A stretch of DNA of 61,366 nucleotides, counting the filler. It is 8 parts of 8 records of this genome, joined end to end, with 100 filler letters (N's around TTAATTAATTAA, not from the genome) between each part and the next. Parts side by side here need not be neighbours in the genome. Positions count along the whole stretch, not along the records: positions 48,804 to 61,366 come from SRR31147125_8151; 7 more parts are not named here. One strand, written 5' to 3'. This document shows positions 5,591 to 61,366 of the stretch, piece by piece. How positions within the stretch are numbered: position 1 is the first letter of the stretch; each line of letters begins with the position of its first letter. A model generated the notes under the pieces. It worked only from the letters and a program-made list of their open reading frames with translations. It had not been told where the DNA came from and did no database searches. Both the position numbers and the translations under genes were made by a program.

Positions 5591-5690
5591 NNNNNNNNNN
5601 NNNNNNNNNNNNNNNNNNNNNNNNNNNNNNNNNNTTAATTAATTAANNNNNNNNNNNNNNNNNNNNNNNNNNNNNNNNNNNNNNNNNNNN
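5591..5690. other. artificial contig linker
   Basis: N-run + TTAATTAATTAA (stops in all frames) + N-run. Confidence 0.99.
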
Positions 5691-12046: not shown

Positions 12047-12146
12047 NNNNNNNNNNNNNNNNNNNNNNNNNNNNNNNNNNNNNNNNNNNNTTAATTAATT
12101 AANNNNNNNNNNNNNNNNNNNNNNNNNNNNNNNNNNNNNNNNNNNN
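12047..12146. other. artificial contig linker
   Basis: N-run/TTAATTAATTAA/N-run. Confidence 0.99.
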
Positions 12147-18436: not shown

Positions 18437-18536
18437 NNNNNNNNNNNNNNNNNNNNNNNNNNNNNNNNNNNNNNNNNNNNTTAATTAATTAANNNNNNNN
18501 NNNNNNNNNNNNNNNNNNNNNNNNNNNNNNNNNNNN
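18437..18536. other. artificial contig linker
   Basis: N-run/TTAATTAATTAA/N-run. Confidence 0.99.
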
Positions 18537-25508: not shown

Positions 25509-25608
25509 NNNNNNNNNNNNNNNNNNNNNNNNNNNNNNNNNNNNNNNNNNNNTTAATTAATTAANNNNNNNNNNNNNNNNNNNNNNNNNNNNNNNNNNNN
25601 NNNNNNNN
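25509..25608. other. artificial contig linker
   Basis: N-run/TTAATTAATTAA/N-run. Confidence 0.99.
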
Positions 25609-34327: not shown

Positions 34328-34427
34328 NNNNNNNNNNNNNNNNNNNNNNNNNNNNNNNNNNNNNNNNNNNNTTAATTAATTAANNNNNNNNNNNNNNNNN
34401 NNNNNNNNNNNNNNNNNNNNNNNNNNN
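34328..34427. other. artificial contig linker
   Basis: N-run/TTAATTAATTAA/N-run. Confidence 0.99.
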
Positions 34428-37374: not shown

Positions 37375-38835
37375 TCAATTATTTAACACAGAATATTTTA
37401 ATTCATTGATTTTCAAAGAATTAAAATCTTCAAGGTTATCAATTAAGTTAAGATATTCTACGTAGATTCTTTCGATAGAAGATTTTGTAAATAATTCTGA
37501 TTTATATCTCCCGGTGTAACTAATACAATTTGTATAAATATTAATATCAAAAAACATATCAAACTTGTCAGTGTATTTTATATCAGAGTGTTTAATCCCT
37601 GGCGAAAGTGTATCCATTGAAATTTCGGTTTCATGACTAATTATATTTAGGATAATGGAACTAACACTTGGAAATGATACATCATTTTCATGTAATGCCA
37701 TACAAATGGGGTATGTTTTATGACGAAATGATTTTAACGCAGAAATACAAACATCTTTTAGGAATTCAAAAACTGTTTGATCCCCTTTAATTTTATGACG
37801 GATTAGTACTGTATCTACCATGCAGCCAATAACATTTTTGAGTTTTTCTTTATCTCTAAAATTTGTTAGCATTCCTATTATTATATCCTTCTCCCCTGTT
37901 AAAATAAAAATTGACAAGAAGTAGGTTGCCATGATTATTAGTGGTAATTTAATATTGGTTTTTATTGACATTATTTTCAATATTTTTAATCTCTTTTTAT
38001 CTACGATAAAACAAAATGAAGATGATGGCTCATCAGATAAACTAATAATATTACCCAAGAAATGTTTTTGAATACCTAATACAGTATCGGCTCCGGCAGA
38101 CTTTAACTCATTAATTATCTGTTCTTTATATGATGCGATCTTTATTCCCTTAGATGCAGAACATTTTGTTGTTAAGTTGATAGTGGGAATATTTCTTAAT
38201 AATTTTTCCCAAAACGCTTTTTGTTTTAAACCATTTCTGCCCTCTAATTCCTGATTTATTTCATTTAGATAATCTCCAAAAGGATATGAAATAGGCTGTG
38301 TAATAATTTTTTTGCATAAGCACTCTTTATAGATCATATTTAATTCCTTTTTCAAATACCTCATTGTTTCAGCATCACTTATTCGATGGGGAATGGTCAT
38401 AATTATATAGTATTCCTCTTTAGTTATTTTTACTATTCTAATAAGTAAATTAGGAAATTGATCAGGGTAGAATACTTTTTTTTCTTGATTCTCGATTAAT
38501 TCTTTGACAACCATATAAGGATTATTCGTTTTACTCATATCTTGAAATTCAATTTTTAACATGTTAGTCTTATATGGCCATACTTTTTGCATAATTTTGT
38601 TCTCTCTCATAACTAATGTCGTTCTTAAAACCTTATGTCTTTCGATAAGAATTTTAAAAGTCTTTCGCAAAGCTTCTATATCAATAAATTTAAGTTTGTT
38701 ACTTAAAGAACAGTTAATTGGCTTTAAATGGTTTTTAAAATATAAGTTTACGAGGAATTCATACTTCTGTAAAGAAGCTGCTTCGTAGTATTCGAATCTA
38801 TTATCATTTTCCATAAAAGTTTCAATTATTATCAA
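37375..38835 (-). CDS. stand-alone NRPS-type condensation-domain protein
   Basis: AS.LQ; L...F..LI.RH..LRT; active-site-like PHRISDAE; FW...L; DI.IG....R......IGC.VDT...R. Confidence 0.8.
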   Translation of the reverse strand: MIIIETFMENDNRFEYYEAASLQKYEFLVNLYFKNHLKPINCSLSNKLKFIDIEALRKTFKILIERHKVLRTTLVMRENKIMQKVWPYKTNMLKIEFQDMSKTNNPYMVVKELIENQEKKVFYPDQFPNLLIRIVKITKEEYYIIMTIPHRISDAETMRYLKKELNMIYKECLCKKIITQPISYPFGDYLNEINQELEGRNGLKQKAFWEKLLRNIPTINLTTKCSASKGIKIASYKEQIINELKSAGADTVLGIQKHFLGNIISLSDEPSSSFCFIVDKKRLKILKIMSIKTNIKLPLIIMATYFLSIFILTGEKDIIIGMLTNFRDKEKLKNVIGCMVDTVLIRHKIKGDQTVFEFLKDVCISALKSFRHKTYPICMALHENDVSFPSVSSIILNIISHETEISMDTLSPGIKHSDIKYTDKFDMFFDINIYTNCISYTGRYKSELFTKSSIERIYVEYLNLIDNLEDFNSLKINELKYSVLNN

Positions 38836-42724: not shown

Positions 42725-42824
42725 NNNNNNNNNNNNNNNNNNNNNNNNNNNNNNNNNNNNNNNNNNNNTTAATTAATTAANNNNNNNNNNNNNNNNNNNN
42801 NNNNNNNNNNNNNNNNNNNNNNNN
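42725..42824. other. artificial contig linker
   Basis: N-run/TTAATTAATTAA/N-run. Confidence 0.99.
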
Positions 42825-48703: not shown

Positions 48704-48803
48704 NNNNNNNNNNNNNNNNNNNNNNNNNNNNNNNNNNNNNNNNNNNNTTAATTAATTAANNNNNNNNNNNNNNNNNNNNNNNNNNNNNNNNNNNNNNNNN
48801 NNN
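48704..48803. other. artificial contig linker
   Basis: N-run/TTAATTAATTAA/N-run. Confidence 0.99.
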
Positions 48804-48805
48804 AA

Positions 48806-49084
48806 AAAATAAAATTGGTAATAATTACTGCCATTATAGTTTTGGTATCGGGTTTCTTAAACATAAATTATAGTAATGTAGGAAACGGTTATGATTCTTC
48901 TCTTAAGTTAGCAGATATAAAGGTTTTAGCCTCAGCCTTAGCTGAGGGAGGAGGATCTCAACTTTTATGTTATGATTCAATGTCATCGGATGGAACCGGT
49001 AATCTTACACATATAACTTATTGCGGTGATTGCAGTGCACATTTAGCCAGGAGTTGGCGCATAGAAAAGAAATGTAGTAAATAA
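48806..49084 (+). CDS. secreted precursor-like peptide 1 (NVEALA-like), 4-Cys core, start codon just off the contig
   Basis: KIKLVIITA... signal, pro-region LKLADIKVLASALAE, core GGGSQLLCY...CGDC...CSK. Confidence 0.75.
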   Translation, partial: KIKLVIITAIIVLVSGFLNINYSNVGNGYDSSLKLADIKVLASALAEGGGSQLLCYDSMSSDGTGNLTHITYCGDCSAHLARSWRIEKKCSK

Positions 49085-49105
49085 ATTATCAAGTAAGTTG
49101 ATTTT

Positions 49106-49143
49106 AATATTAGGTTAGGAAATATTTTTTCCTGCCTAATATT
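49106..49143 (+). terminator. stem-loop after precursor 1
   Basis: AATATTAGG..AGGA...TCCT.CCTAATATT. Confidence 0.6.
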
Positions 49144-49418
49144 TAGTTTTTTATCTTGTTGAGATAAAAACTATTTCTTTAAATGAACTTGTTTAAAGTT
49201 GGATTAAAAGTACATTGCCTGAACCATTGATTCTACTATGGAATTACAAAATTTGATACATGAAAGCAAGAAAATATTCTTGAAACCATTTAATGATCAA
49301 TGTATACTGATTTAACTTTTAACAACTTCATTATAATAACAAAGACGTTTTGCGAAAAATGCTTATTACTAAAACCTTAATCTCATCTATGATATTTTAA
49401 AAACTTTCAAAAATAAGA

Positions 49419-49459
49419 ATCTATTCCCTATTAAATTTGCAATTTAATAGGGAATAGAT
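49419..49459. repeat. perfect 19-bp inverted repeat with a 3-nt spacer
   Basis: ATCTATTCCCTATTAAATT-TGC-AATTTAATAGGGAATAGAT. Confidence 0.9.
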
Positions 49460-49514
49460 AAACAGATAGAACAATTTTTTTTACAAATAAGACAGATACT
49501 GCATATTTTAACAT

Positions 49515-50510
49515 ATGATTTTAAATAGAAAAATTATGATATCATTTATTAATTATAAAAACTTTAACAAGTTTTATGTTTGTTGCTTATTAGTGTTATG
49601 TATGAATTGTAGTAGTAATAATGATTCATTTGCTCCTGAGAAAATGGAATTGAAATCTGATATAAGTATATTAGAAGAAATAATTTCACCTGACTTTCTT
49701 ACACGAATTGATAATAAGTTGATTATTTCTAGTAGTCAGTCAGATACTACTTTACATGTATATTCACTACCTGATTTGAAACATTTGCATGGTACAGGAA
49801 AGAAAGGCAAAGGACCTGAAGAGATTCAACTATTTCCAATGTTTTGTGAATCATTAAATCGAGAACTTTATATTTGGGGATATAGTCCAGTTACAATTAA
49901 AAAATTTAATATAGATCAAAACGGAGAATTAAAATTCGTTGATTTAATTAAGTTACCCAATTATGAAGAGTTTAACTACATGCATATTTTAAATGACTCT
50001 CTATTTATTTACTATCTACCAGATCAACTAAAAATTGTCAAATTTGATTTAAAAAACAAAAAATATCTAGATGATATTCAAATGAAAAAAGACCCCCATA
50101 ATGAATCGTATTATTATAAAAATAGAGGTATTATCGCAGCAAATGATTCATTTTTAGTATTTAGTTATTTGTTTAAAAAACAGATTAACATTTATAGGAT
50201 AAATGATTTCAAATTACACAAAAAGATTATTGGAAATTATGAACATAGAGACCCAATTGTGGGGGATCCAAATGTTCCATTATATTATACAATAATTGTT
50301 GCAGGTGAGAATTTTTTATATGCTTTATGCAAGAATAATAACAGTAAAAATACAGTTATGGAGGTATATAATTACAATGGTTCATTTGTTAAAGAATTTA
50401 CATTTGACATTACCCCTGAATTATTTGCGGTCGACGAGGATAATAAAACGATATATGGATATGCATACAATAACAAATATGGTCAATGTTTATTGAGATA
50501 TAGATTTTGA
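49515..50510 (+). CDS. TolB-like 6-bladed beta-propeller lipoprotein (BF3164-like)
   Basis: Lipobox-like CMNC; GKKGKGPEE; V.NYNG...K......FAVDE....IY. Confidence 0.75.
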   Translation: MILNRKIMISFINYKNFNKFYVCCLLVLCMNCSSNNDSFAPEKMELKSDISILEEIISPDFLTRIDNKLIISSSQSDTTLHVYSLPDLKHLHGTGKKGKGPEEIQLFPMFCESLNRELYIWGYSPVTIKKFNIDQNGELKFVDLIKLPNYEEFNYMHILNDSLFIYYLPDQLKIVKFDLKNKKYLDDIQMKKDPHNESYYYKNRGIIAANDSFLVFSYLFKKQINIYRINDFKLHKKIIGNYEHRDPIVGDPNVPLYYTIIVAGENFLYALCKNNNSKNTVMEVYNYNGSFVKEFTFDITPELFAVDEDNKTIYGYAYNNKYGQCLLRYRF

Positions 50511-50773
50511 GACTAGATTTTTCTCAACTAGTGTTGTAATTTTTACATCCATGTAATATTGTTTTAACGCAATAAGCTTAAAATAAATTTATTAAAGTCA
50601 AAATAGCAAAAAAATATTATATTCTTATTTGAAAAAAGACACCCACAGCTATGGGAATAATCGTACTATTAATATTAAAATCTTTCAAAAGAAAAAAATC
50701 CCTATTATTAAAAATTTTTGAATATCAAATCACATCTTAATTTTTTACAAATTCACTAATTAATCTTACTGTA

Positions 50774-51367
50774 ATGATAAATAAAATTTATTTTATTGGT
50801 AAAATTGTTTTTCTAGACATTTTGTTAATTATTTTCATCTTTTCTTTTAACAGATGCACAAAGCATCAGCAAATAACTGAAGCTAAATCTATTGTAAAAG
50901 AGTGGGTAGGAAAAAAAATAAAGTTTCCAGATAATTTTTATTGTAACTTTTTAGGAAAGGATACTTCAAATTTATTGTGTGCTGATTTGATAGAGTCAGA
51001 GTTTAAAATATTATTGTATGCTGATTCAACTGGCTGTACAAATTGTAAATTGCAGTTGAGAGAATGGAACGATTTGATCAATGAAATAAATTCGATTAAA
51101 GGAAATGAACTTTCTTTTTTATTTTTCTTACAACCAAAAAACATAACAGAACTAAAGATGATACTGCAAGAGAATGATTTTCAACATCCTATTTTTATAG
51201 ACAAAAAAGGCGAAATAAATCAAATAAACAAGTTTAATAAGAAATCTGATTATCAATGTTTTTTGTTAAATAAAAATAATGAAGTATTAATGATTGGCAA
51301 CCCTGTTCATAACACGAAAATTTTGGAATTATATAAGAGAAAAGTAGGACTAATAACTACGGATTAA
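50774..51367 (+). CDS. thioredoxin-like CxxC protein (type found beside DUF1573 proteins)
   Basis: EW.GK.I.FP, KIL.Y.DSTGCTNCKL, CFLLNK.N.V..IGNP. Confidence 0.75.
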   Translation: MINKIYFIGKIVFLDILLIIFIFSFNRCTKHQQITEAKSIVKEWVGKKIKFPDNFYCNFLGKDTSNLLCADLIESEFKILLYADSTGCTNCKLQLREWNDLINEINSIKGNELSFLFFLQPKNITELKMILQENDFQHPIFIDKKGEINQINKFNKKSDYQCFLLNKNNEVLMIGNPVHNTKILELYKRKVGLITTD

Positions 51368-51620
51368 AATATCTGAAAAAGATTTTTACTTCAATTGAGC
51401 AGGCACCAAGCCCCGTACATTTGCAACGCGTGATAAAGAAACAAATGCACTATTGATATGTGATATAAAGATATCTAAGCTGGCTTGCTGCCAATCTTAT
51501 ATGAAAGATGAAAGATTTAGATCATGAAAAAAAAATATGAAAATATAACAATAATGATAAATTTGGTTCTGTTTGCATATTTGCGCGAAGGCCAGGCGTT
51601 GAAGACGCAAGCGAGGGACA

Positions 51621-51857
51621 CTTGGACAAAACACAAAAGCCGAAGAATCTTATTACTATGCCTGGAACATGATTCCCAGCCGGTTTTATCCTAAATACTT
51701 AATGGTAAAATTATATGATGAAACAGGGCAACGAAAAAAAGCTCTGGAAACGGCTAATGAACTTTTAAACAAAAAGATAAAAATACAATCCACTGCGATT
51801 GAGGAAATAAAGAATGAAATGAAAACAATAATCAAAAAGCACAAAGGCAATGTTTGA
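51621..51857 (+). pseudogene. C-terminal TPR remnant of a Bacteroidota O-antigen-ligase-family protein
   Basis: LGQNTKAEESY..A..MIPSRFYPKYL..KLY...G....A...A..LL.K..K..S...EI..EM; the membrane domain is missing upstream. Confidence 0.65.
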
Positions 51858-51886
51858 ATTTATCAAACAAGTGATTAAACAAAAGG

Positions 51887-51986
51887 AAAAAGGCAGGAAT
51901 AACCTTACAACCGTTTGCTACAAAAGTAAAGGTTACCCTGCCCAGCCCCTTTTTCAATTAAGAGAGGAGGAGAGGTGACAAAGATA
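51887..51986. ncRNA. conserved two-hairpin element, copy 1 (candidate minus-strand sRNA or cis-regulator)
   Basis: GGCAGG..TAACCTT...AAGGTTA.CCTGCC, then CCCCTTTT...GAGAGGAGG, then GTGACAAAGATA; homologous to 60785-60886. Confidence 0.6.
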
Positions 51987-52061
51987 TCTAGTTTTTTTGC
52001 TAAAACTACCTTTAGTTCAGTGGTAAATAATTCTATTTATAAACATTTTAAAATTTAAATC

Positions 52062-52385
52062 ATGAAAAAGAAAAACAAAATTTTAATCGGTTCATCTTTA
52101 ATTTTAGGAATATTCATATTCAATTTATTTGCAATGAGTAGTATCGCAGATATTGAAAAAACTAATATCAGCTTAAAACAATTGGTAACTTTAAGTACTG
52201 CGGAAGCTGAAAGTGAAACTTACAATTGCACCTCTGGTGGTATAGGGTCTTCATCGTGTTCAACTAGCGCCAGCGGAGGCGGTGGAGGGATAAATGGGGG
52301 AACCTCCTGTTCGGTGACATGTATATCAGGATATTATGCTTGTTGCAATAATTATTACAACAAATGTCAATGTCGAAAAAGTTAA
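52062..52385 (+). CDS. secreted precursor-like peptide 2 (NVEALA-like), 8-Cys Gly/Ser-rich core
   Basis: Signal peptide; ISLKQLVTLSTAEAE; CTSGGIGSSSCS...CSVTC..GYYACC.....CQC. Confidence 0.85.
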   Translation: MKKKNKILIGSSLILGIFIFNLFAMSSIADIEKTNISLKQLVTLSTAEAESETYNCTSGGIGSSSCSTSASGGGGGINGGTSCSVTCISGYYACCNNYYNKCQCRKS

Positions 52386-52413
52386 CATAAATAGTTGAGT
52401 CTATTCTTAATTA

Positions 52414-52452
52414 TTGCTATCTAAATACAAAAAAACAGTATTTAGGTAGCAA
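52414..52452 (+). terminator. stem-loop after precursor 2
   Basis: TTGCTATCTAAATAC-loop-GTATTTAGGTAGCAA, 15 bp with one G-U. Confidence 0.7.
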
Positions 52453-52472
52453 CATATAAACATATTTTCAAC

Positions 52473-53613
52473 ATGAATAAATATATTCACATTATTATTT
52501 CGGTATTTTTATTATATTCTTGTTCAACAAAAAAAAAGAGGTTAAGTGCCCAATACTAGAAATCCCTGAAAAGATAGAACCCGTAAATCTATCAAACATC
52601 ACAAAAAACTTCGAAACTATAAAACTTGAGACATCTGAAGACTGTATACTAGCTGAACTTAAATATATAAAATTCAATGAAAAATTAATATATATACAAG
52701 ACATTGTATTTAAAGGAATATATATTTATAATACTAAAGGTGAATTCGTCGGAAAATTCAATAAGGTAGGAAAGGGTGAAGGTGAATATCTTTCTATTGA
52801 TGACTTTATAATAGATGGAGAAAATAATTTACTTGAAATTTTGGATAGATTAAGTCGAAAAATCTTAATATACGATCTAAATAATTTTATTTTTTGGAAT
52901 CGTTTTCTCTCCCCGTTGATTTTATTTTCACCTTTTCAAAGGTTGGAGATGTATATTTTTTTCAGACGAACTCTGCCAGAAATATTATAGAAAATAAACC
53001 AACAAATAGTAGTATTATTTCATATAACAGAAAAGCTAAGAAAGCTTACCCTATTTTTGACAATCTGTTAGATGACAATGAAAATGCAACTTGGGAATTT
53101 AATGATGTTTTTACTGTTAGCGAAAGTGAAAAATTATATGCTTCATTTGCGTGGGATCATATCATTTACGAATCTAACCAGAATATAATGACTCCTTTTC
53201 TATATATTGATGCAGGAAATAAAAAATTCCCTAATGAAATAATAAATGGAAATTATGATAGAAAAATGGATTTTCTTAACTCAAATAGGGTCAGTGGCCG
53301 TTATCATTTTTTTAAATTACTCATGCAAAAAAATCAACAATATATAATAGCATACGGGAATAGTTATCCACCACAAATTCATTACATAATGAATTTAAAT
53401 AATAATAAAACATTAATCAACACTGATAATCTTATTAATGATTATTTCCCATTCAAGCATGAAAAAATTGAAATATTTATGGTAAGTAATGGCTCTATAA
53501 TTTCTGTTATTTATCCATTTAACACAGAACCTAATTCAGAGATAATTAAACATTTAAATGTAACTACAAATAGCAATCCTATAATTTTAAAATTTGGAAT
53601 AAATGAAAAGTAA
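52473..53613 (+). CDS. 6-bladed beta-propeller lipoprotein (DUF5128-like), two homopolymer frameshifts (~52533, ~52892)
   Basis: MNKYIHIIISVFLLYSC lipobox from ATG 52473; I.LETSEDC.L, G.G.GEY..I.DF; terminal NPII. Confidence 0.75.
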
Positions 53614-54210
53614 AACGCTTTTATATACTACACTAATTTTATTAGTTATTATTAATATGTTTCTAATAATAAAATTACTCAACCTAAAAAAGAAATTAAA
53701 GAGTTTCCTGGACTATTTCAACAAACTAGAATACAGAAAAATTTAATGGAAGAAGGTTTTTTTCAGTATATCGATTTTGCTAATATTGAAATAGATTATA
53801 ATGAACCGATTTACGATTTAAATGAGCAGAAATCTACTTTATATGATGTGTTAAAAGATACCAATACTTTGATATTATTCATATATACAGAATCGTGTAG
53901 TCCATGTATTGTAAAGAACATTAATGTAATAAAAAAAATTAGAAAAGAAAATGACTTAAACATTAAAATTCTTATAACTGGTTTGCAAGACTTTAGAGGT
54001 TTTAAATCATATATTAAAACTTATGAAATTGAAGATTATGCATTTATGCTAGAAGATGGTTTTGATGGATTTAATGTTAATCCAATAGTTTATTGTTTAA
54101 ACACAAGACAAATGGAAAGTAAATTTTATTTTGCACCAAATGAAAACTTATTATATCTGACAGAAGATTATTTAATAAGAATAAAAGAATATTTTAATTT
54201 GGCAAATTAG
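53603..54210 (+). CDS. membrane-anchored thioredoxin-like CxxC protein (frameshift near 53690)
   Basis: N-terminal TM from ATG 53603; L.....ESCSPC, P..Y and F.P.......T..Y. Confidence 0.6.
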
Positions 54211-54291
54211 TATTATTACCCGTTGGATCTCCCCTAATGATGCAAGCATTCCGCTAACGCTTAACTTAAGCAACTAAATTATTACTTCGAT

Positions 54292-55371
54292 ATGCAAAGA
54301 AAATTCTCAATATGTTTACTACTACTTTTGTCCTGTTCTTCTAATAAGAAACCGGAAGGAACAGGATTAGCAACAAAAAATCAATACAATAGCGAACAGA
54401 ATTTAGTAAGAACAGAAGTCCTAAAAACATCAAGCTTTAAGAACGAACTGGTTAGCAACGGCATTTTAAATTCTCCCCAAAAAGGAGTGTTAAAATTTTC
54501 TATTAATGGAGAATTGGATAAGTTAAATTTTAAAAATGGGGAAAGGGTAAAAGAAGGTCAATTAATAGCACAACTAAAACAAGATGAATTAAAGCAATCC
54601 CTGGAGCAGGCAAATATCTCACTGGCAAAAGCCAGGCTGGAGCTTCAGGATATGTTAATAGGTCAGAACTACAGCATGAACGATACAACAAAAATCCCCA
54701 AAGAAGTATATAATGTGCTAAAAATACGTTCAGGTTTTTTAGAAGCAGTAAACAATGTTAAGAAAGCCGAATTGAACTTAAATAACTCTGAGTTGAGGGC
54801 ACCGTTTAATGGTGTAATCGCAAATCTCAACTATAAAATATACGAACAGGTAAGTACTGGAGAAGAATTTTGCATGTTAATTGACAATTCTGTATTTGAA
54901 GTTAGTTTCTCTGTTTTGGAAACAGAATTAAAAAATGTATCGGTTGGCAAAGATTTAACTGTTGTACCTTTTTCTAATAACCAAGACAAATACGCTGGAA
55001 AAATAACAGAAATAAATCCTGTAATCGATGAAAATGGTCTTATTCAAGTAAAGGCAGCACTAAAAAACACGAAGGGTCTTATGGAAGGAATAAACGTAAA
55101 AGTGTTTGTTGAAACAGAAATTCCCAACCAATTGGTAGTCCCGCGTTCGGCTGTTGTATTAAGACAAAATCAAGAAGTTCTGTTTAAATATATTTCAGGA
55201 ACTGCATTTTGGACGTATGTAAAAGTACTTCATGAAAACAGTAACTCGTATGCTGTAATTGCCCATCCGGATAAAGAAGGGGCTTTAATGGCTGGTGATA
55301 CAATCATTGTTTCGGGGAATTTAAATTTGGCTCATGAGTCGAAGGTTGAGCTCAACAACAATATAAAATAA
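54292..55371 (+). CDS. RND efflux periplasmic adaptor (MFP) lipoprotein
   Basis: LSC lipobox; lipoyl half-motifs NG..V..GQ.IA and LRAPF.G.I; VVP.SAV. Confidence 0.9.
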   Translation: MQRKFSICLLLLLSCSSNKKPEGTGLATKNQYNSEQNLVRTEVLKTSSFKNELVSNGILNSPQKGVLKFSINGELDKLNFKNGERVKEGQLIAQLKQDELKQSLEQANISLAKARLELQDMLIGQNYSMNDTTKIPKEVYNVLKIRSGFLEAVNNVKKAELNLNNSELRAPFNGVIANLNYKIYEQVSTGEEFCMLIDNSVFEVSFSVLETELKNVSVGKDLTVVPFSNNQDKYAGKITEINPVIDENGLIQVKAALKNTKGLMEGINVKVFVETEIPNQLVVPRSAVVLRQNQEVLFKYISGTAFWTYVKVLHENSNSYAVIAHPDKEGALMAGDTIIVSGNLNLAHESKVELNNNIK

Positions 55372-55420
55372 AAGTATGTCCAAACAATGTCTACAAATTT
55401 TAGCAACAAACAAAAAGTGA

Positions 55421-57466
55421 ATGAATCTAAAAAAGATAATTTTTGAACTGAATAATAAATCCATTACAGCAATAATACTGTTCGCAATTCAATTGTTAAC
55501 TTCCTGCCACAAAAATGACAACAAACTTGAGCAAGCCCTTATGTCTGCAAGGGACAACAGAGGCGAATTGGAAAAAGTATTAGAACATTACAGTAAAAAC
55601 CCCAAAGACAGCTTAAAATATAGATCCGCGTGCTTTTTAATTGAAAACATGCCATATCATTATTCTTTTGATACAACATATCTGCAAAATTATCGTCCTG
55701 TTATTAAAACATTAGAATTTTTAAAGGCTAATGGTTTCTCAGAAGAAAAAATAAAAGACAAAGTAAACCCGTTCATGGACAGCCTAATATCGGTTTACCC
55801 CTTATCAAATATTTATTCGAAAACTAAGGACGATATTACCTCAATAAAATCTGAGTTTTTAATAGCAAATATTAACCATACTATTAATTTTTATAATTCA
55901 AACCCATTTAAAGACAGTATAGCATTTATTGATTTTCTCGAATTTGTTTTGCCATACCGAATTGAGGACGGGTATTGTTTAGAGGAATGGAGGAGATACT
56001 TCTCTACTAATTATTCTCAAAAAATCAATCAAAATTTTTCCTCTTTCCATGAACTTTGTGATTCTCTATTATATATTTTTAGTGATATTGAAATTGGTTG
56101 GCGTATTGCCCACCAGTTTCCTTATTTAAAACTCGATGATTATTTAAAATCAAAGACGGCACATTGTACGGAAAAGTGCTGGCTTAACAGTATGTTGCTT
56201 CGCTCATTTGGCATTCCAACAACGGTTGATTTTATACCTACCTCAAGGATTCACGAACTAGGGCATGAATGGAACGCAATTAAATTAAAACATGGTACAT
56301 TCCCTTTTGAACCATTTTGGGAAGATAATATTTGGTGTATAGGAGAATATTATACACGGAAAAAAGATGACCCTTTATTCGGTTCTTTTCAACCCCCAAA
56401 AATATATCGAAAAACTTTTAGCCCTAACTACTCAGAATTATTATTACATTCAATTAATTCTGGCGAAGAAATCCCAATGTTTTTTAGAAACCTGTTTCGA
56501 AAAGATGTTACAAAAGAATACTTTAATACATTCAAACTTGAAATCCCAATAATTATTAAAGATAAAAAACTTTCTTATGCCTATGCATGTGTAATGGGAA
56601 AAAACAAATGGGTAGCAATAGATTTTGGAAAAGTAGTAAGACATGGGAAAGTAATATTCAACTCATTGGGCTCCAAAAATGTTTATCTACCATCATTATA
56701 TAAAAATAACAACCTTATTCCTGCAGCTTATCCTGTTCTTCTAAAAGAAAACGGAGAAACGTTGATACTGCGCCCTGACACATCAGTCATAGAAACCATT
56801 GAGGTTTCATACGTTGCTTATCCACGTCCTCAACTAAATGAGTATAAGGATGGGTTAATTGGGACTGTAGTAGAGGTGGCAAATGATAAAAATTTCAACA
56901 ATAGTAAAATTCTATATTCTATTAATAGAATATGCGAACCAGGAACTCATCGTGTACCTATCCAAACTGAATCAAAATACCGTTATATAAGATTAATTAT
57001 CCCAAAAACGAAACTAAAATTAAATGAAATTACATTCTTCAGCAGGAATAATGGGGTGTTAAATGAAGTAAAAGGGGAATTGATAAGTTCTTTACCCAAA
57101 GACAATTCGTATTTAGAGAGACTTGCTGATGGGGATTTGCTTACTTCTTTCACCCCAAGACAACTTTGTAAAGAGCATTTACTATTGGACAGTATTTGGA
57201 TTGGTTTTGATTTTCAACACCCAATAAAAATAGATGCGTTTGAATTTTATTTTGCTTTTAATGCAAATATTAGGAAAAAAGGAGTGTATGAGCTTCTATA
57301 TTGGGATTTTGGTTGGAAATCATTAGGTATAAAAAAATCGAATTCAACTAGTCCCATTTCCTTTGACAATGTTCCCAAAAATGCATTGCTAAAAATAAAA
57401 ATCCATGACACAAATTCAAATAGCAGGATTTTTACTTATGAAAATGGCAAGCAATTTTGGTGGTAA
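55421..57466 (+). CDS. transglutaminase-like lipoprotein with C-terminal discoidin/F5-8-like domains
   Basis: LTSC lipobox; LE.AL..A..NR.ELEKVL.HY, FL..VLPYR, C...C......RS.GIP...DF.P......HEWN, YRYIR. Confidence 0.75.
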   Translation: MNLKKIIFELNNKSITAIILFAIQLLTSCHKNDNKLEQALMSARDNRGELEKVLEHYSKNPKDSLKYRSACFLIENMPYHYSFDTTYLQNYRPVIKTLEFLKANGFSEEKIKDKVNPFMDSLISVYPLSNIYSKTKDDITSIKSEFLIANINHTINFYNSNPFKDSIAFIDFLEFVLPYRIEDGYCLEEWRRYFSTNYSQKINQNFSSFHELCDSLLYIFSDIEIGWRIAHQFPYLKLDDYLKSKTAHCTEKCWLNSMLLRSFGIPTTVDFIPTSRIHELGHEWNAIKLKHGTFPFEPFWEDNIWCIGEYYTRKKDDPLFGSFQPPKIYRKTFSPNYSELLLHSINSGEEIPMFFRNLFRKDVTKEYFNTFKLEIPIIIKDKKLSYAYACVMGKNKWVAIDFGKVVRHGKVIFNSLGSKNVYLPSLYKNNNLIPAAYPVLLKENGETLILRPDTSVIETIEVSYVAYPRPQLNEYKDGLIGTVVEVANDKNFNNSKILYSINRICEPGTHRVPIQTESKYRYIRLIIPKTKLKLNEITFFSRNNGVLNEVKGELISSLPKDNSYLERLADGDLLTSFTPRQLCKEHLLLDSIWIGFDFQHPIKIDAFEFYFAFNANIRKKGVYELLYWDFGWKSLGIKKSNSTSPISFDNVPKNALLKIKIHDTNSNSRIFTYENGKQFWW

Positions 57467-57485
57467 TAATATGTAAGTCCTGAAA

Positions 57486-60400
57486 ATGATAAAATTCTTA
57501 ATCCATCGTCCCATCGCCGTCACCATGACATTCCTCGCCATCCTCGTGCTTGGGATAGTATCTTCCATGTACCTGCCCGTATCATTAATGCCTGATATTG
57601 ATATACCAAAAATTACGGTTCAGGTAAGCCAGAAAAATGTTTCGGCACGCGAACTGGAGAATACCATAACAAAGCCATTAAGGCAACAATTGATGCAGGT
57701 TGCCCATTTAAAAGACATTAAAAGTGAAAGTCGTGATGGAAGTGCAACAATAAAACTAGACTTTAATTATGGAGTTAATATTGATTTTGCATTCATTGAA
57801 GTAAATGAAAAGATTGACCGAGCAATGGCTGGTTTTCCAACTAGTGTTGAACGTCCTAAAGTGATTAAGGCTAGCGCTACGGATATCCCGGTTTTTTATT
57901 TGAATTTAACATTAAGAGAAGTCGGAAGTGGGAATCCCGACAGCTATCAGGAGGAAGATGGGAACTGGCAGAAGGGAAGCAGAAAATCAATTGGTAACAA
58001 GGACTGTAACGTACAACCCGAAACCCAAAACTCGAAACCAACATCAAGTGAACTCTTCCCTGTTCCGAATGCTTTTATTGAATTAAGCAATTTTGCCGAC
58101 CAGGTAATAAAAAAACGAATTGAACAACTCCCACAGGTAGCTTTAGCTGATATTAGCGGTAGGGTATTTACTGAAATACTTATAATCCCTAATAGAGAAA
58201 AACTACAAGCTGTTAGCATTACACTAGATGACATTAAAAATTCTTTAAACGAAAACAACATTAACCTGGGCAATCTGCTAATAAAAGACGGGCAATACCA
58301 ATATAACATTCGAATTGGTAATAAACTACAATCGAAGGATGATATTGCGAACATATTTATTAAAAAAGAGAACAGAATTTACCAATTAAAGGACATTGGT
58401 GACATAATCGAACATCCACAAAAACGAAAGGGCTTTGTTACATCTGACAACAAAGAAGCTATTACACTTGCTATAATCAAACAATCGGACGCACGAATGC
58501 GTGATTTGGAAAAAGAATTGCTCACATTAATTAAGCATTTAGTAATAGATTACCCTGATATCGATTTTACTATTTCACGCGACCAAACCCAGTTATTGGA
58601 TTACTCCATTCAAAACCTAAAACAAAGTTTAATGCTCGGGGCATTTCTGGCTTTTATCATTATGTTCTTTTTTCTGAAAGATTTTAAATCGCCGGTTTTA
58701 ATTGGAATCTCTATTCCTTCATCGCTCATCATTTCTCTATTGCTATTTCACATCTTTGGCTTATCCATTAATATAATTTCCTTATCCGGTCTGATTTTGG
58801 GTATTGGAATGATGATAGATAATTCCATAATTGTAATAGATAACATTACACAGTATAGAGAGCAAAAGTTAGATTTATCAGAATCTTGCATAATGGGAAC
58901 AAATGAAGTTTTTCGTCCTATGTTGAGTTCTGTACTAACCACATGTGCTGTATTTATCCCATTAATATTTTTAGGGGGAATTTCCGGGGCTTTGTTTTAC
59001 GATCAGGCCATAGCAGTAACCATTGGGCTTTTTGTATCACTTTTTGTATCCATTACATTATTACCTGTTTATTACCGTATTTTTTACAAAAACCATGATA
59101 CTAGTAATAACAACAAATTCTTAACAAGGCTGAACAAGCTTAATTATGCAAATCTGTATGAAAAAGGATTGCGATTTACGTTAAAAAAACAGGGACTGGC
59201 ATGGACTTTTATATTCTGCTTGTTATTGGGTTCTGTATTTCTTTTTAAACAACTTGACAAGAACAAATTTCCATCACTCACAAAAACAGAGATCTTACTG
59301 CAAATTGACTGGAACGAACGCATTACAATAGAAGAAAATAACAGAAGAATAGAAACATTACTTAAAAAACATAACAAAAATATATTACAAACAAACACCT
59401 ATATCGGCGAACAACAATTTTTGTTGGAACATAACATGCCAAACTCAAGCACGAATGCACTGGTGTATGTTAACACAACGGGACAAAAAGAGCTGAATCA
59501 TTTCACTCATAGTGTTAAACAATATTTACAAGAAAATTATGCTGAAGCCGCTTTTAGCTTTGAAGAAACGGGCAATGTATTTGATCTTATCTTTTCGGAC
59601 AATGAACCGCCACTCGAAATACGGCTTAAACCGACAAAAGATTATGGTCCTCATCAAAATGAGAAATTACAGCAAAGTATGGAGCAGTTAAGAAATGCCT
59701 TTCCTAATTACAACATCCCCGCCATTGCATGGCGGGAGCAAGTGGTTTTGAGCAGTAAACCCGAGTTATTAACGCTTTACCATGTTAATTTCCAGGATGT
59801 ATTTAATACCTTAAAAACAAGTTTTAGGCAAAACCAGGTAATGCTTCTTGCCGAAAACCAAGAATTTACACCTGTTGTATTGGGTGAAAAGCCAAAAAAC
59901 CTGAATGAAATAATCCAAACAACTTTTGTTGCAAACAAAGAAGGAGAATTAATCCGATTGAGTTCATTAATAAAACAAGAGAAAACAGAGGATTTAAAAT
60001 CCATTGTTTCAGGCAGAGAAGGTGAGTATTATCCAATTGCATTAACAATTGACGATAATTCTGTTCCGGAAGTTTCAGAGAATATAGACAATTATATACA
60101 ACAAAATCCTGACTATGAAGCACGATTAACAGGTTCATGGTATTCGAATAGAAAATTAATTAAAGAAATCGCACTTATCCTACTCATTTCGTTAATCCTA
60201 CTCTATTTTATTCTGGCGGCTCAATTTGAATCGCTTACTTTGCCCTTAATAGTTTTACTTGAGGTACCCATTGATATTTTTGGAGCTTTGTTATTTTTAA
60301 AAATATTTGGTTCAGATATCAACCTCATGGCTATGATTGGAATGGTTGTGATGAGTGGAATTATTATTAATGATTCCATCCTTAAAATTGATACCATTAA

Positions 60401-60656
60401 CAAAACCTTGACCGAGGGGAATAGCCTGATAAAATCAATCATCATAGCAGGCCAACGCAGGCTAAAACCTATATTGATGACCAGTCTGACTACCATACTG
60501 GCTCTTTTACCATTTTTATTTACCAAAGGCATGGGTTCTGATTTGCAACGACCTCTGGCATATAGTGTTATTGGTGGGATGATTGTTGGCACACTGGTGA
60601 GTTTGTATTTTGTGCCGTTGTGTTATTATTATTTGATGAGGAAAAAATTATTTTGA
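57486..60656 (+). CDS. RND efflux permease (AcrB/AcrD/AcrF family)
   Basis: LPVSLMPDIDIP, GMMIDNSI, RRLKPILMTSLTTI and GG.IVGT motifs. Confidence 0.95.
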   Translation: MIKFLIHRPIAVTMTFLAILVLGIVSSMYLPVSLMPDIDIPKITVQVSQKNVSARELENTITKPLRQQLMQVAHLKDIKSESRDGSATIKLDFNYGVNIDFAFIEVNEKIDRAMAGFPTSVERPKVIKASATDIPVFYLNLTLREVGSGNPDSYQEEDGNWQKGSRKSIGNKDCNVQPETQNSKPTSSELFPVPNAFIELSNFADQVIKKRIEQLPQVALADISGRVFTEILIIPNREKLQAVSITLDDIKNSLNENNINLGNLLIKDGQYQYNIRIGNKLQSKDDIANIFIKKENRIYQLKDIGDIIEHPQKRKGFVTSDNKEAITLAIIKQSDARMRDLEKELLTLIKHLVIDYPDIDFTISRDQTQLLDYSIQNLKQSLMLGAFLAFIIMFFFLKDFKSPVLIGISIPSSLIISLLLFHIFGLSINIISLSGLILGIGMMIDNSIIVIDNITQYREQKLDLSESCIMGTNEVFRPMLSSVLTTCAVFIPLIFLGGISGALFYDQAIAVTIGLFVSLFVSITLLPVYYRIFYKNHDTSNNNKFLTRLNKLNYANLYEKGLRFTLKKQGLAWTFIFCLLLGSVFLFKQLDKNKFPSLTKTEILLQIDWNERITIEENNRRIETLLKKHNKNILQTNTYIGEQQFLLEHNMPNSSTNALVYVNTTGQKELNHFTHSVKQYLQENYAEAAFSFEETGNVFDLIFSDNEPPLEIRLKPTKDYGPHQNEKLQQSMEQLRNAFPNYNIPAIAWREQVVLSSKPELLTLYHVNFQDVFNTLKTSFRQNQVMLLAENQEFTPVVLGEKPKNLNEIIQTTFVANKEGELIRLSSLIKQEKTEDLKSIVSGREGEYYPIALTIDDNSVPEVSENIDNYIQQNPDYEARLTGSWYSNRKLIKEIALILLISLILLYFILAAQFESLTLPLIVLLEVPIDIFGALLFLKIFGSDINLMAMIGMVVMSGIIINDSILKIDTINKTLTEGNSLIKSIIIAGQRRLKPILMTSLTTILALLPFLFTKGMGSDLQRPLAYSVIGGMIVGTLVSLYFVPLCYYYLMRKKLF

Positions 60657-60784
60657 AAACATCTAAATAAAAAATATACAATTATCCCGACACAATTAAA
60701 TAAAAAATTTATATAATTACAAATTATATATTTAGAATTTCTATGTATTATTGTTCAACAATCTTCACTACAATAAACCGAAAG

Positions 60785-60886
60785 AAAAAAGGCAGGATTA
60801 AACCTTCAACCACATTGCAAGAAAAAATGTTTAACCTGCCTGGCCTCTTTTCGCAATTTTGGAAAGGAGGTGATGTGACAAAGAAA
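60785..60886. ncRNA. conserved two-hairpin element, copy 2
   Basis: GGCAGG.TTAAAC...GTTTAACCTGCC, then CCTCTTTTC...GGAAAGGAGG, then GTGACAAAGA. Confidence 0.6.
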
Positions 60887-60978
60887 AATATTAAAAATAT
60901 ATGAATAATAATATTCTAACCCATGAAATGATATAATTGGGTATTTAAATATTTTATTAATCTTCAAACATTACCAAG

Positions 60979-61238
60979 ATGAAAAAAATAGCAATACTAA
61001 TTAGTGCCTTAACCATTGGAATTATTAGTATGGCCTTTAGTTTAAACACAAAGGAAATATTGAACGAAAGAAACACTATAAAAAATTTAGTGAAAAACTG
61101 CCAGGCAAACGCAGAATGCGAAATATCTGACTATACAGGGGATGCGAATTTAAATGCGACGACACAGAAAATGAAACCTGTACTTTCGAAGTAGGGCCTA
61201 TTAAACTTACATGCAGCGGAAAAGAAGTGGATTGCTAA
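60979..61238 (+). CDS. secreted precursor-like peptide 3, 6-Cys core revealed by correcting a G-run frameshift at 61138-61141
   Basis: MKKIAILISA... signal, TIKNLVKNCQANAE; the shifted frame reads CEFKCDDTENETCTFEVGPIKLTCSGKEVDC*. Confidence 0.7.
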
Positions 61239-61282
61239 AAAACACAGCTTTTAATGAACACAAATGAGTAAAATATAATAAT

Positions 61283-61366
61283 ATGAAAAAAAATATTATA
61301 ATAATTGCAACAGCATTATTTACAATTATGGGAGTTGTAAACAATTTAAATATTGGCACTCTTTTT
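61283..61366 (+). CDS. probable precursor-like peptide 4, 3'-partial
   Basis: MKKNIIIIATALFTIMGVVNNLNIGTL, same signal style as the other precursors, tandem to peptide 3. Confidence 0.5.
   Translation, partial: MKKNIIIIATALFTIMGVVNNLNIGTLF

Follow-up and report, generated by a model that had tools for sequence, protein, structure and literature searches.

A locus of candidate disulfide-rich peptides with propeller and CxxC partners, apparently the divergent, marine version of a system conserved in Bacteroidota

Gene content of the locus

We have analyzed a stretch of DNA of 61,366 nucleotides (the window), which contains seven N44-TTAATTAATTAA-N44 linkers and therefore consists of eight separate contigs, and in particular its last contig (SRR31147125_8151, positions 48804-61366, 12,563 bases), which coincides exactly with a locus of small peptide precursors and their partner genes. 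The contigs are merely joined by the linkers, so that genes are cut at the joins and adjacency across a join is meaningless. All the genes of the locus (Table 1) lie on the + strand, close to where an earlier note on this DNA had placed them. Their order is peptide, propeller and CxxC protein, followed by a second cassette of the same composition (the repetition that the note had described) and then by a membrane fusion protein (MFP), a transglutaminase-fold protein, a permease of the resistance-nodulation-division (RND) type and two more peptides. The pump genes had also been recognized correctly, and so had the stem-loops that follow the first two precursors and the signal-like start of a fourth one, which runs off the contig end.

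Table 1. Features of the last contig and linkers of the window (positions count along the whole window).
Feature	Position	Strand	Description
pre1	48806..49084	+	Peptide precursor, 5' end cut by contig start; leader ends LASALAE; core with 4 Cys
Hairpin 3' of pre1	49106..49143	+	z -4.87; 0/200 shuffles fold as well
Perfect palindrome	49419..49459		19-nt arms, 3-nt loop, z -8.44; 56 nt upstream of prop1
prop1	49515..50510	+	6-bladed NHL/TolB-like propeller lipoprotein, BF3164-type
trx1	50774..51367	+	Thioredoxin-like CxxC (CTNC) lipoprotein, short form without DUF1573 domain
3' remnant of Wzy_C/TPR (O-antigen-ligase-like) gene	51603..51857	+	Profile positions 526-600 of 603, E 8.9e-24
Two-hairpin leader element, copy 1	51878..51992	+	Upstream of pre2
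pre2	52062..52385	+	Complete, 107 aa; signal peptide; leader ends LSTAEAE; Gly/Ser-rich core, 8 Cys
Two adjacent hairpins 3' of pre2	52390..52450	+	z -5.82; 0/200 shuffles fold as well
prop2	52473..53613	+	DUF5128-type 6-bladed propeller lipoprotein; two homopolymer under-calls (after 52528, 52889)
trx2	53603..54210	+	Membrane-anchored CxxC (CSPC) thioredoxin-like protein; homopolymer under-call after 53685
MFP (RND periplasmic adaptor) lipoprotein	54292..55371	+	TIGR01730 152.5 bits, cut-off 94.9
Transglutaminase-fold lipoprotein	55421..57466	+	681 aa; conserved N-terminal helical domain, C-terminal F5/8-type-C (discoidin) domain
RND (AcrB-type) permease	57486..60656	+	PF00873 (ACR_tran) 591.7 bits
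Two-hairpin leader element, copy 2	60777..60892	+	Upstream of pre3
pre3	60979..61238	+	Leader ends CQANAE; 6-Cys core in next frame of record (G-run 61138-61141)
pre4	61283..61366	+	Start of fourth precursor, cut by contig end; K-rich signal-like N-terminus
Linker joins	5591-5690, 12047-12146, 18437-18536, 25509-25608, 34328-34427, 42725-42824, 48704-48803

Homopolymer errors in the record

In the recorded sequence the coding regions of prop2 and of trx2 are both broken in two by a change of frame, and the open reading frame (ORF) that begins at 60979 ends at 61194 after no more than 2 Cys; the core with 6 Cys has to be read in the next frame. Each of these breaks falls in a homopolymer run. 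The record was checked by aligning to it the Logan contigs of three public runs (X1, X2 and X3). X1 is a possible source of this DNA and hence does not count as independent evidence, X2 is a marine metagenome from another study, and joints of X2 and X3 whose sides were short (23 letters) were excluded. An X1 contig of 23,204 bases, which reaches 7.8 kb beyond the locus on the upstream side and 2.9 kb on the downstream side, covers the whole locus with zero substitutions within the fitting span and only 8 gaps over 12.5 kb, each a homopolymer length difference of one or two bases. Seven of the differences were assigned to positions, three of them at 51991, 60668 and 60848 and the other four in coding sequences: +A after 52528, +T after 52889 and +A after 53685, which X2 has as well, and +G after 61137. 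These four break ORFs. When the four letters were inserted by script, all three genes became single ORFs: prop2 with 380 aa that match propeller profile positions 7-342, trx2 with 202 aa, and pre3 with 86 aa and 7 Cys, of which the core contains 6. Intact ORFs are thus restored, indicating that the frame breaks are errors of the record; gene decay or phase variation was rejected because the read-based contigs carry the missing bases. Further apparent frameshifts in the contigs of this record may be the same artefact.

Two claims of the earlier note have to be amended in this light. Its core Cys numbers (4, 8 and 6) are right for the organism, where pre3 has its 6 Cys after the added G, and not for the ORF at 60979 as recorded. 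Of its three complete small ORFs, pre2 is complete, pre1 is cut at the 5' end and pre3 is frame-broken in the record. The note had missed these frameshifts, and also the contig join, the Wzy_C/TPR protein and a linked gene of about 300 aa for an S26 signal peptidase found in related loci.

Conserved linkage across Bacteroidota

With the transglutaminase-like protein as query, genome contigs gave 39 species loci, whose long matches are 25-34% identical to it, and a metagenome search added 80, mostly redundant gut Bacteroides, for a total of 119. Many of the 39 loci are cut short, and partner genes were scored by local profiles and only when co-oriented. Counted this way, the Wzy_C/TPR protein is present in 25/39 loci, the propeller and the CxxC protein in 22 each, the peptide in 20, the S26 signal peptidase in 17, RND in 8 and MFP in 7. 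In the Bacteroides cellulosilyticus locus, Pfam detects NVEALA (PF14055), TolB_like, DUF1573 on the CxxC protein, Peptidase_S26 and Wzy_C, while OEP/TolC was confirmed by Pfam in two other loci (L020 and L008). Between MFP and RND there is a peptide cassette in L020 and L034 and the transglutaminase-like gene in the window. That these genes form a conserved linked set and not a chance neighborhood is strongly supported, and the linkage in other genomes on which the earlier note had made its reading depend recurs among the 39 species loci.

In a sample of 401 genomes of the class, the centre genome counted, PF14055 was found in 5 and the transglutaminase profile in 11. With the centre excluded (400 genomes), three of the four genomes with PF14055 were among the ten with the transglutaminase profile, and in two genomes (G281 and G335) both genes are located 2-15 kb apart on one contig. 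B. cellulosilyticus has 9 PF14055 matches over several contigs, and both the NVEALA peptides and the BF3164/DUF5128 propellers are multi-copy families in the carrier genomes searched. The published record is scant. The expression tables of PMC10434189 include the Bacteroides thetaiotaomicron region BT0662-0669, whose components correspond to those described here and are annotated as O-antigen ligase family, 6-bladed propeller, signal peptidase I and RND adaptor, and the portions of that source that list these genes do not discuss their function. Apart from one expression table, our literature search found no paper on NVEALA, DUF5128 or the B. thetaiotaomicron locus tags, and nothing relevant that links transglutaminase-like proteins, O-antigen ligases, Bacteroidetes and bacteriocins.

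In distant Bacteroidia the transglutaminase-like and Wzy_C genes are kept as a pair (6/6 distant loci) without NVEALA peptides. The pair adjoins a small Gly/Ala-rich peptide, a MacB-type exporter and an adaptor in L122, a radical SAM enzyme and an M50-like peptidase in L123, and Sel1 proteins with type IX secretion tails together with Tox-MPTase2 toxin genes in L125, L126 and L127. L124 has the full system, with peptide leaders like those of the window and not of the NVEALA type. This context points to peptide handling and inter-bacterial conflict.

Judging from these gene sets, the system would be made of swappable cassettes (peptide, propeller and CxxC protein) and a fixed set comprising the transglutaminase-fold protein, Wzy_C/TPR, S26 and MFP/RND/TolC. 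By its sequences the contig is a divergent member of this conserved Bacteroidota system, and its source appears to be marine. The remaining contigs of the window contain genes that are commonplace in Bacteroidota (CHU_C-tailed cargo of type IX secretion, SprB repeats, PorP/SprF and glycosyltransferases of the lipopolysaccharide core), and a search of these seven contigs for a further peptide cassette found none. One of them carries (37378-38835, - strand) a lone ORF with a condensation domain of the non-ribosomal peptide synthetase type amid glycosyltransferase, methyltransferase and ABC-transporter genes.

Peptide precursors and their cores

The first precursor has no start codon, being truncated at the contig start, and its N-terminus is hydrophobic. 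A word-based search for homologues of pre1 gave nothing at E<=0.01. A pairwise comparison aligned it over 83 aa, with 34% identity (E 6e-12), to a Bacteroides peptide (L016:17220-17492) that itself matches PF14055 at 3.3e-10, and an alignment of pre1 with four such NVEALA peptides (alignment A2, five sequences) has 4 invariant Cys. A search of 1.84 billion representatives gave 99 relatives of pre2 at E<=1e-3, 12 of them at E<=1e-10, and the 8 Cys of this core type are invariant across 12 aligned sequences. Eight small relatives of pre2 were compared with PF14055 (cut-off 27 bits): two were above the cut-off (sequences P0075 and P0085; scores of 34.2 and 29.0 bits), three were below and three had no match. 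Relatives of pre2 carry NVEALA leaders. A local profile made from 27 related peptides gave E values of 0.023 for pre3 and 0.027 for pre4, and no match to pre1 or pre2. The window peptides can in this way be linked by sequence to the NVEALA family transitively, through homology to bona fide members (in pre1 directly and in pre2 by way of its relatives).

The leaders end in A-x-A-E in the window and in NVEALA-x-x-E in the NVEALA peptides. Among 47 non-redundant cores of related loci, the mean length was 50 aa and Cys made up 8.8% of the residues; the number of Cys was even in 35 of the 47, and 30 had a Glu three residues past the leader motif. The 8 invariant Cys of the pre2 core and the excess of even-Cys cores argue that the peptides are real and behave as folded units. 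Cores are unrelated between cassettes, yet each type has the sequence conservation of a folded unit. The 8-Cys module of the pre2 type doubles as the C-terminal domain of proteins of 195-342 aa (P0091, P0094, P0101, P0105 and others), one of which (P0101) has in addition a type IX secretion tail that scores 24 bits, below the cut-off. At the other end of the locus, the X1 contig has a piece resembling the pre3 core (61140-61213) 84 nt beyond the contig end, after the pre4 start.

Propellers and their pairing with peptides

The propellers announced by the earlier note are there. Against PF15869 (TolB_like) prop1 scores 25.7 bits, below the cut-off of 29.2. Its homologues number 73 and reach 76% identity; PF15869 is present in nearly all of them, and one is named 'BF3164 family lipoprotein'. 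Its AlphaFold2 (AF2) model (pLDDT 90.1) is a 6-bladed NHL-type propeller, and its best structural neighbors are binding domains (Brat NHL, Z 21.0; Mei-P26, Z 20.4) and a Bacteroides structural-genomics protein (DUF4221 BVU_1028, Z 19.5). In the 401-genome sample prop1 was found at E<=1e-40 only in the centre genome, and sequence searches of the PDB with prop1, the transglutaminase-like protein and trx1 gave nothing meaningful. The N-terminal part of prop2 matches PF17170 (DUF5128) with 97.8 bits (cut-off 22.9), as the earlier note had anticipated.

Over all 119 loci, 78 of the 103 peptide ORFs have a propeller within 700 nt downstream, which bears out the statement that NVEALA-type peptides are found beside propellers, and conversely 75 of the 108 propellers have a peptide upstream, none being detected for the other 33. 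Arrays of propellers with no upstream peptide are found in L003, L012, L019 and L124, and the prop1-like gene of L120 is likewise alone. Cassette types are kept across distant genomes. The nearest relatives of prop1 in the loci (E 1.6e-58 and 3e-56) are each preceded by a pre1-type peptide with the pattern C...CxxC...C, and the peptide that goes with the nearest propeller is also the nearest core to pre1 (rank 1 of 27). The co-variation of precursors and propellers expected by the earlier note was detected (28 representative pairs, Mantel rho 0.17, 9/2000 permutations as high), indicating that cassettes travel as units, which is not proof that the two proteins bind each other.

CxxC proteins and disulfide machinery

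Both cassettes have, as had been described, a thioredoxin-like CxxC protein, with the motifs CTNC in trx1 and CSPC in trx2. The two cysteines (C88 and C91) and the cis-Pro (P177) are invariant in 11 sequences (alignment A5). With the local profile trx1 has an E value of 1.1e-52, and its five closest homologues (33-48% identical) run on into a DUF1573 domain exactly where trx1 ends. The match to Pfam Thioredoxin_8 is of 15.2 bits only (cut-off 27). The second CxxC protein, trx2, which has a hydrophobic stretch at the N-terminus (read from the ORF at 53603), is a weak member of the family (local profile E 0.001). DsbB was found in none of five carrier genomes searched and VKOR in one, four of the five having neither. 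This scarcity fits with each cassette bringing its own thiol-disulfide protein; it does not explain the route of re-oxidation. A literature search on DsbB and VKOR brought up passages of PMC6158253, which have no bearing on why the two are missing.

Transglutaminase-fold protein, Wzy_C/TPR, S26 peptidase and pump

The Cys/His transglutaminase-like lipoprotein of the earlier note is recognized by Pfam only below the cut-offs (16.4 bits for PF01841, with a cut-off of 23, and 18 bits for a second match). Cys249 and His282 are invariant in 18 sequences, while that same alignment has no conserved Asp, the third catalytic residue, after His282. The core of its AF2 model (pLDDT 80.6) resembles the transglutaminases FXIII, TG2 and TG3 (Z 9.0-9.4, about 195 residues aligned) and, at a lower level, PNGase (about Z 7) and a putative cysteine protease (Z 6.4). 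A literature search for TglA of Streptococcus pyogenes (PDB 9crn) found no paper. No relative above about 30-34% identity over long matches was present in the genome and metagenome contigs. In one genome (G223, L124:8186-11568) a DDE transposase gene that runs in the other direction splits the transglutaminase-like gene.

The Wzy_C/TPR remnant has an identical structure in the reads-based contig. A second copy of the junction at 51849-51902 (Wzy 3' end and leader start) is found in X1 489 nt upstream of the contig start, suggesting that an intact Wzy_C gene and a third leader may be located just upstream of pre1. S26 had several matches in each of the five carrier genomes: frames of about 300 aa adjoin transglutaminase or NVEALA loci, and longer ones (about 315-500 aa) occur elsewhere in the same genomes as tandem pairs that look like housekeeping enzymes. 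The RND permease is 43% identical over its full length to the one in the Parabacteroides locus L008, indicating that the pump belongs to a lineage specific to the system. Compared with that orthologue, it has a polar-rich insertion of about 40 residues around residues 150-190.

Leader element and apparent cassette turnover

Both pre2 and pre3 are preceded by a conserved two-hairpin element, about 115 nt long, and their upstream regions have a mean column identity of 77% over a 244-column alignment. It corresponds to no Rfam family; the only Rfam match on the contig was a chance CRISPR-DR one (E 0.86). With a covariance model of the two copies, the three best outside matches (L035:10123-10231, E 0.014; L001:12035-12144, E 0.12; L012:737-857, E 0.31) were all on the + strand and 100-200 nt upstream of NVEALA-like ORFs. 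The sequence of the first helix differs among loci. Read on the minus strand, 2 of 4 copies have a Bacteroides-type -7 box in the conserved 3' portion, and hairpin 1 with the T-run that follows it looks like a terminator; the element may therefore encode a small antisense RNA. The hairpins located 3' of the peptide genes are in keeping with a peptide message that is much more abundant than that of the partners. Between pre3 and pre4 no hairpin was found (z -0.22). The palindrome listed in Table 1 sits inside the 430-nt gap between pre1 and prop1.

Related contigs in X2 allow a comparison of versions with and without a cassette. One of them carries pre2-prop2-trx2 with 99.6% identity (9 differing letters over 51957-54421), and a more diverged one joins 51986 to 54470, i.e., the leader goes straight into the MFP gene and the cassette is missing. 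It thus seems that cassettes are acquired and deleted between the leader repeats. The X2 depth over 51737-52155 was about three times that of the neighboring bins, as expected of a repeated or widely shared Wzy-3'/leader segment.

A proposed pathway and its alternatives

We propose that the locus matures bacteriocin-like disulfide peptides, protects the cell against them and exports them through the periplasm, a reading drawn from gene content and sequence to which we give a probability of roughly one half. The precursor would enter the periplasm by the Sec route, as the N-terminal signal or anchor suggests, and would be cut after the small-x-small site of the leader (ALA, AEA and ANA in the window, the ALA of NVEALA elsewhere), likely by the system's own S26 signal peptidase, whose gene would be outside the window. 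The CxxC protein of the cassette would then form or shuffle the disulfides of the core. The propeller, by its adjacency and co-variation, would bind the peptide of its own cassette, most likely as an immunity or escort protein. The RND/MFP/TolC pump, whose genes are interleaved with cassettes, would expel the folded peptide or keep it out, the transglutaminase-fold Cys-His protein and Wzy_C/TPR being accessories, perhaps for trimming of the pro-peptide or a change of the envelope. The product would probably be an antagonistic, bacteriocin-like mini-protein.

In favor of this proposal are the linkage of the genes, the adjacency of peptides and propellers and the persistence of cassette types, the conservation of the cores, the S26 frames beside the loci, the scarcity of DsbB and VKOR, the conflict context in distant Bacteroidia and the hairpins after the peptide genes. 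Several observations weigh against it. None of the four window peptides matches PF14055 at E<=0.1 in the profile search that the earlier note had suggested. No S26 gene was detected in the window by the local profile and no outer-membrane factor (TolC) gene on the contig, and Wzy_C is represented by the remnant only. The A-x-A site is some 20 residues beyond the hydrophobic segment, which is far for a type I signal peptidase, an enzyme that usually cuts at a shorter spacing; this distance may also be the reason why a dedicated S26 enzyme exists. In genomes with neither DsbB nor VKOR the CxxC protein may act as a reductase instead of an oxidase. The fold of prop1 is generic, NHL, phytase and PAL proteins all scoring Z 18-21, and since enzymes are only slightly below the binding domains the fold does not decide the role. 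The co-variation between propellers and cores is modest and could be produced by the shared ancestry of whole cassettes alone. We know of no established case of an RND pump that secretes a folded peptide. The literature that we found, to the extent that its tables cover these genes, reports only expression changes of single locus genes of B. thetaiotaomicron and B. fragilis.

Part of the evidence would also be compatible with a heteromeric envelope complex, in which a Cys-rich small subunit is not released and stays with the propeller after maturation by the thioredoxin-like protein, the pump and other genes serving elsewhere. The peptide-propeller adjacency is strict, near one-to-one and accompanied by co-variation, each core type is conserved like a folded domain, the occurrence of the 8-Cys module at the C-terminus of larger proteins fits a domain of this kind, and trx2 has a faint match to MauD (E 0.078). 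However, the cores are wholly different between the cassettes of a single locus, unlike a conserved catalytic subunit, the propellers without a detected peptide would have no partner, and the linked S26 together with the pump interleaved with cassettes point to release. We consider such a complex, which would resemble methylamine dehydrogenase, unlikely. The cores could alternatively be substrates of a true pathway for ribosomally synthesized and post-translationally modified peptides (RiPPs), where the transglutaminase-fold enzyme, possibly with Wzy_C, would introduce isopeptide cross-links or attach or remove lipids or glycans, disulfides being secondary. The invariant Cys-His pair, the PNGase-like matches, the lectin-type discoidin domain and the pairing of the enzyme with a Wzy_C-type membrane protein in most loci, near and distant, would agree with a modifying role. 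But the third catalytic residue is not conserved, a single enzyme per locus would have to deal with many unrelated cores, and the Bacteroides O-glycosylation motif is not enriched in the cores (2 observed versus 4.7 in shuffles), all of which makes this pathway improbable. Pfam and NCBIfam scans of all 14 ORF translations from the contig detected no radical SAM, LanB/C/M, YcaO, ATP-grasp or similar RiPP-class enzyme, so that the term 'RiPP-like' used by the earlier note, resting only on the disulfides and the leader, was not upheld.

The precursors are small, presumably secreted and leader-bearing, they are trailed by hairpins and come as several paralogues, features that would suit pheromone-like signalling peptides with the propellers as receptors or processing partners, and the B. 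cellulosilyticus locus has a small helix-turn-helix protein. Nevertheless, Pfam and NCBIfam scans, which covered the window and, of the relatives, just the B. cellulosilyticus locus, detected no sensor kinase or obvious signal-transduction gene, the propellers are lipoproteins without an output domain, and the many variable cassettes per genome and the neighboring toxin genes fit conflict better, which leaves signalling with a poor chance of being correct. The least credible option is that pump, transglutaminase-like protein, Wzy_C and propellers shield the cell from foreign peptides of the family, the peptide genes being passengers. RND pumps are known for the efflux of toxic compounds, and the propeller arrays and the L120 gene that stand without peptides would be natural in a shield. 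Peptide genes that travel as passengers would hardly be expected directly upstream of most propellers and provided with their own conserved leader element and hairpins, and we regard this option as very unlikely.

Coming back to the proposed bacteriocin-like peptides, a more ambitious formulation would be that Bacteroidota possess a peptide secretion route of their own, with Sec export of pre-pro-peptides, release by a dedicated S26, oxidation by the CxxC lipoprotein of the cassette in hosts devoid of DsbB and VKOR, immunity by the propeller of the cassette, expulsion by RND/MFP/TolC and cassette exchange at the Wzy-3'/leader junction, and hence a new class of Gram-negative bacteriocins in gut and marine bacteria; we put this forward only tentatively. 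Were the products antagonistic disulfide mini-proteins, they would provide models of competition, both in the gut and in the sea, with a large and diverse repertoire of weapons and immunities, they would show how anaerobes devoid of DsbB or VKOR fold disulfide peptides, and RND pumps would gain a secretory role. Candidates for synthesis and testing are readily at hand in the conserved families of cores, the 8-Cys pre2 type among them.

Comparison with known systems

The closest counterparts are the NVEALA/BF3164/DUF5128 loci of Bacteroidales, made of families without assigned function, which have the same cassette order, the same fixed partners and hairpins after the peptide genes. The window differs from them in its peptides, which are below PF14055 and have A-x-A-E leaders, in its apparently marine source and in its transglutaminase-like protein, which is only about 30% identical to any relative found.

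The heat-stable enterotoxin of Escherichia coli is a pre-pro-peptide that is exported by Sec, acquires its disulfides in the periplasm and leaves the cell by TolC-dependent efflux through a tripartite pump. The logic of the pathway proposed here would be similar (signal, pro-region, Cys-rich core, periplasmic oxidation and a pump that crosses the outer membrane). However, the proteins belong to unrelated families, the oxidoreductase and the signal peptidase would be specific to the system here and are housekeeping enzymes there, the pump is of the RND type instead of MacB (the MacB type appears in the distant L122), and the propeller, the transglutaminase-fold protein and Wzy_C are additional.

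In methylamine dehydrogenase (mau) a disulfide-rich light chain is associated with a propeller heavy chain and depends on MauD, a trio of small disulfide-rich protein, propeller and thioredoxin-like maturation factor that recalls the cassettes. However, the mau propeller has 7 blades and its light chain is conserved and bears a cofactor, whereas the cores described here are hypervariable between cassettes.

Some loci of class II bacteriocins contain a dedicated thioredoxin-like accessory protein (the PedC type of pediocin, or the bacteroidetocin loci of Bacteroidales), and LanI-type lipoproteins confer immunity. As in these systems, a small Cys peptide with a leader is accompanied in the locus by its own thiol-disulfide protein and by a presumably cognate lipoprotein encoded next to the peptide gene. 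The locus differs in the Sec-type hydrophobic N-terminus of its precursors, in having a 6-bladed propeller as the putative immunity protein and in the absence from the contig, by Pfam scan, of a double-glycine ABC/C39 exporter. Finally, at the level of architecture only, the locus is analogous to polymorphic toxin and immunity systems, which combine a conserved N-terminal delivery part, a variable C-terminal part and an adjacent cognate immunity gene.

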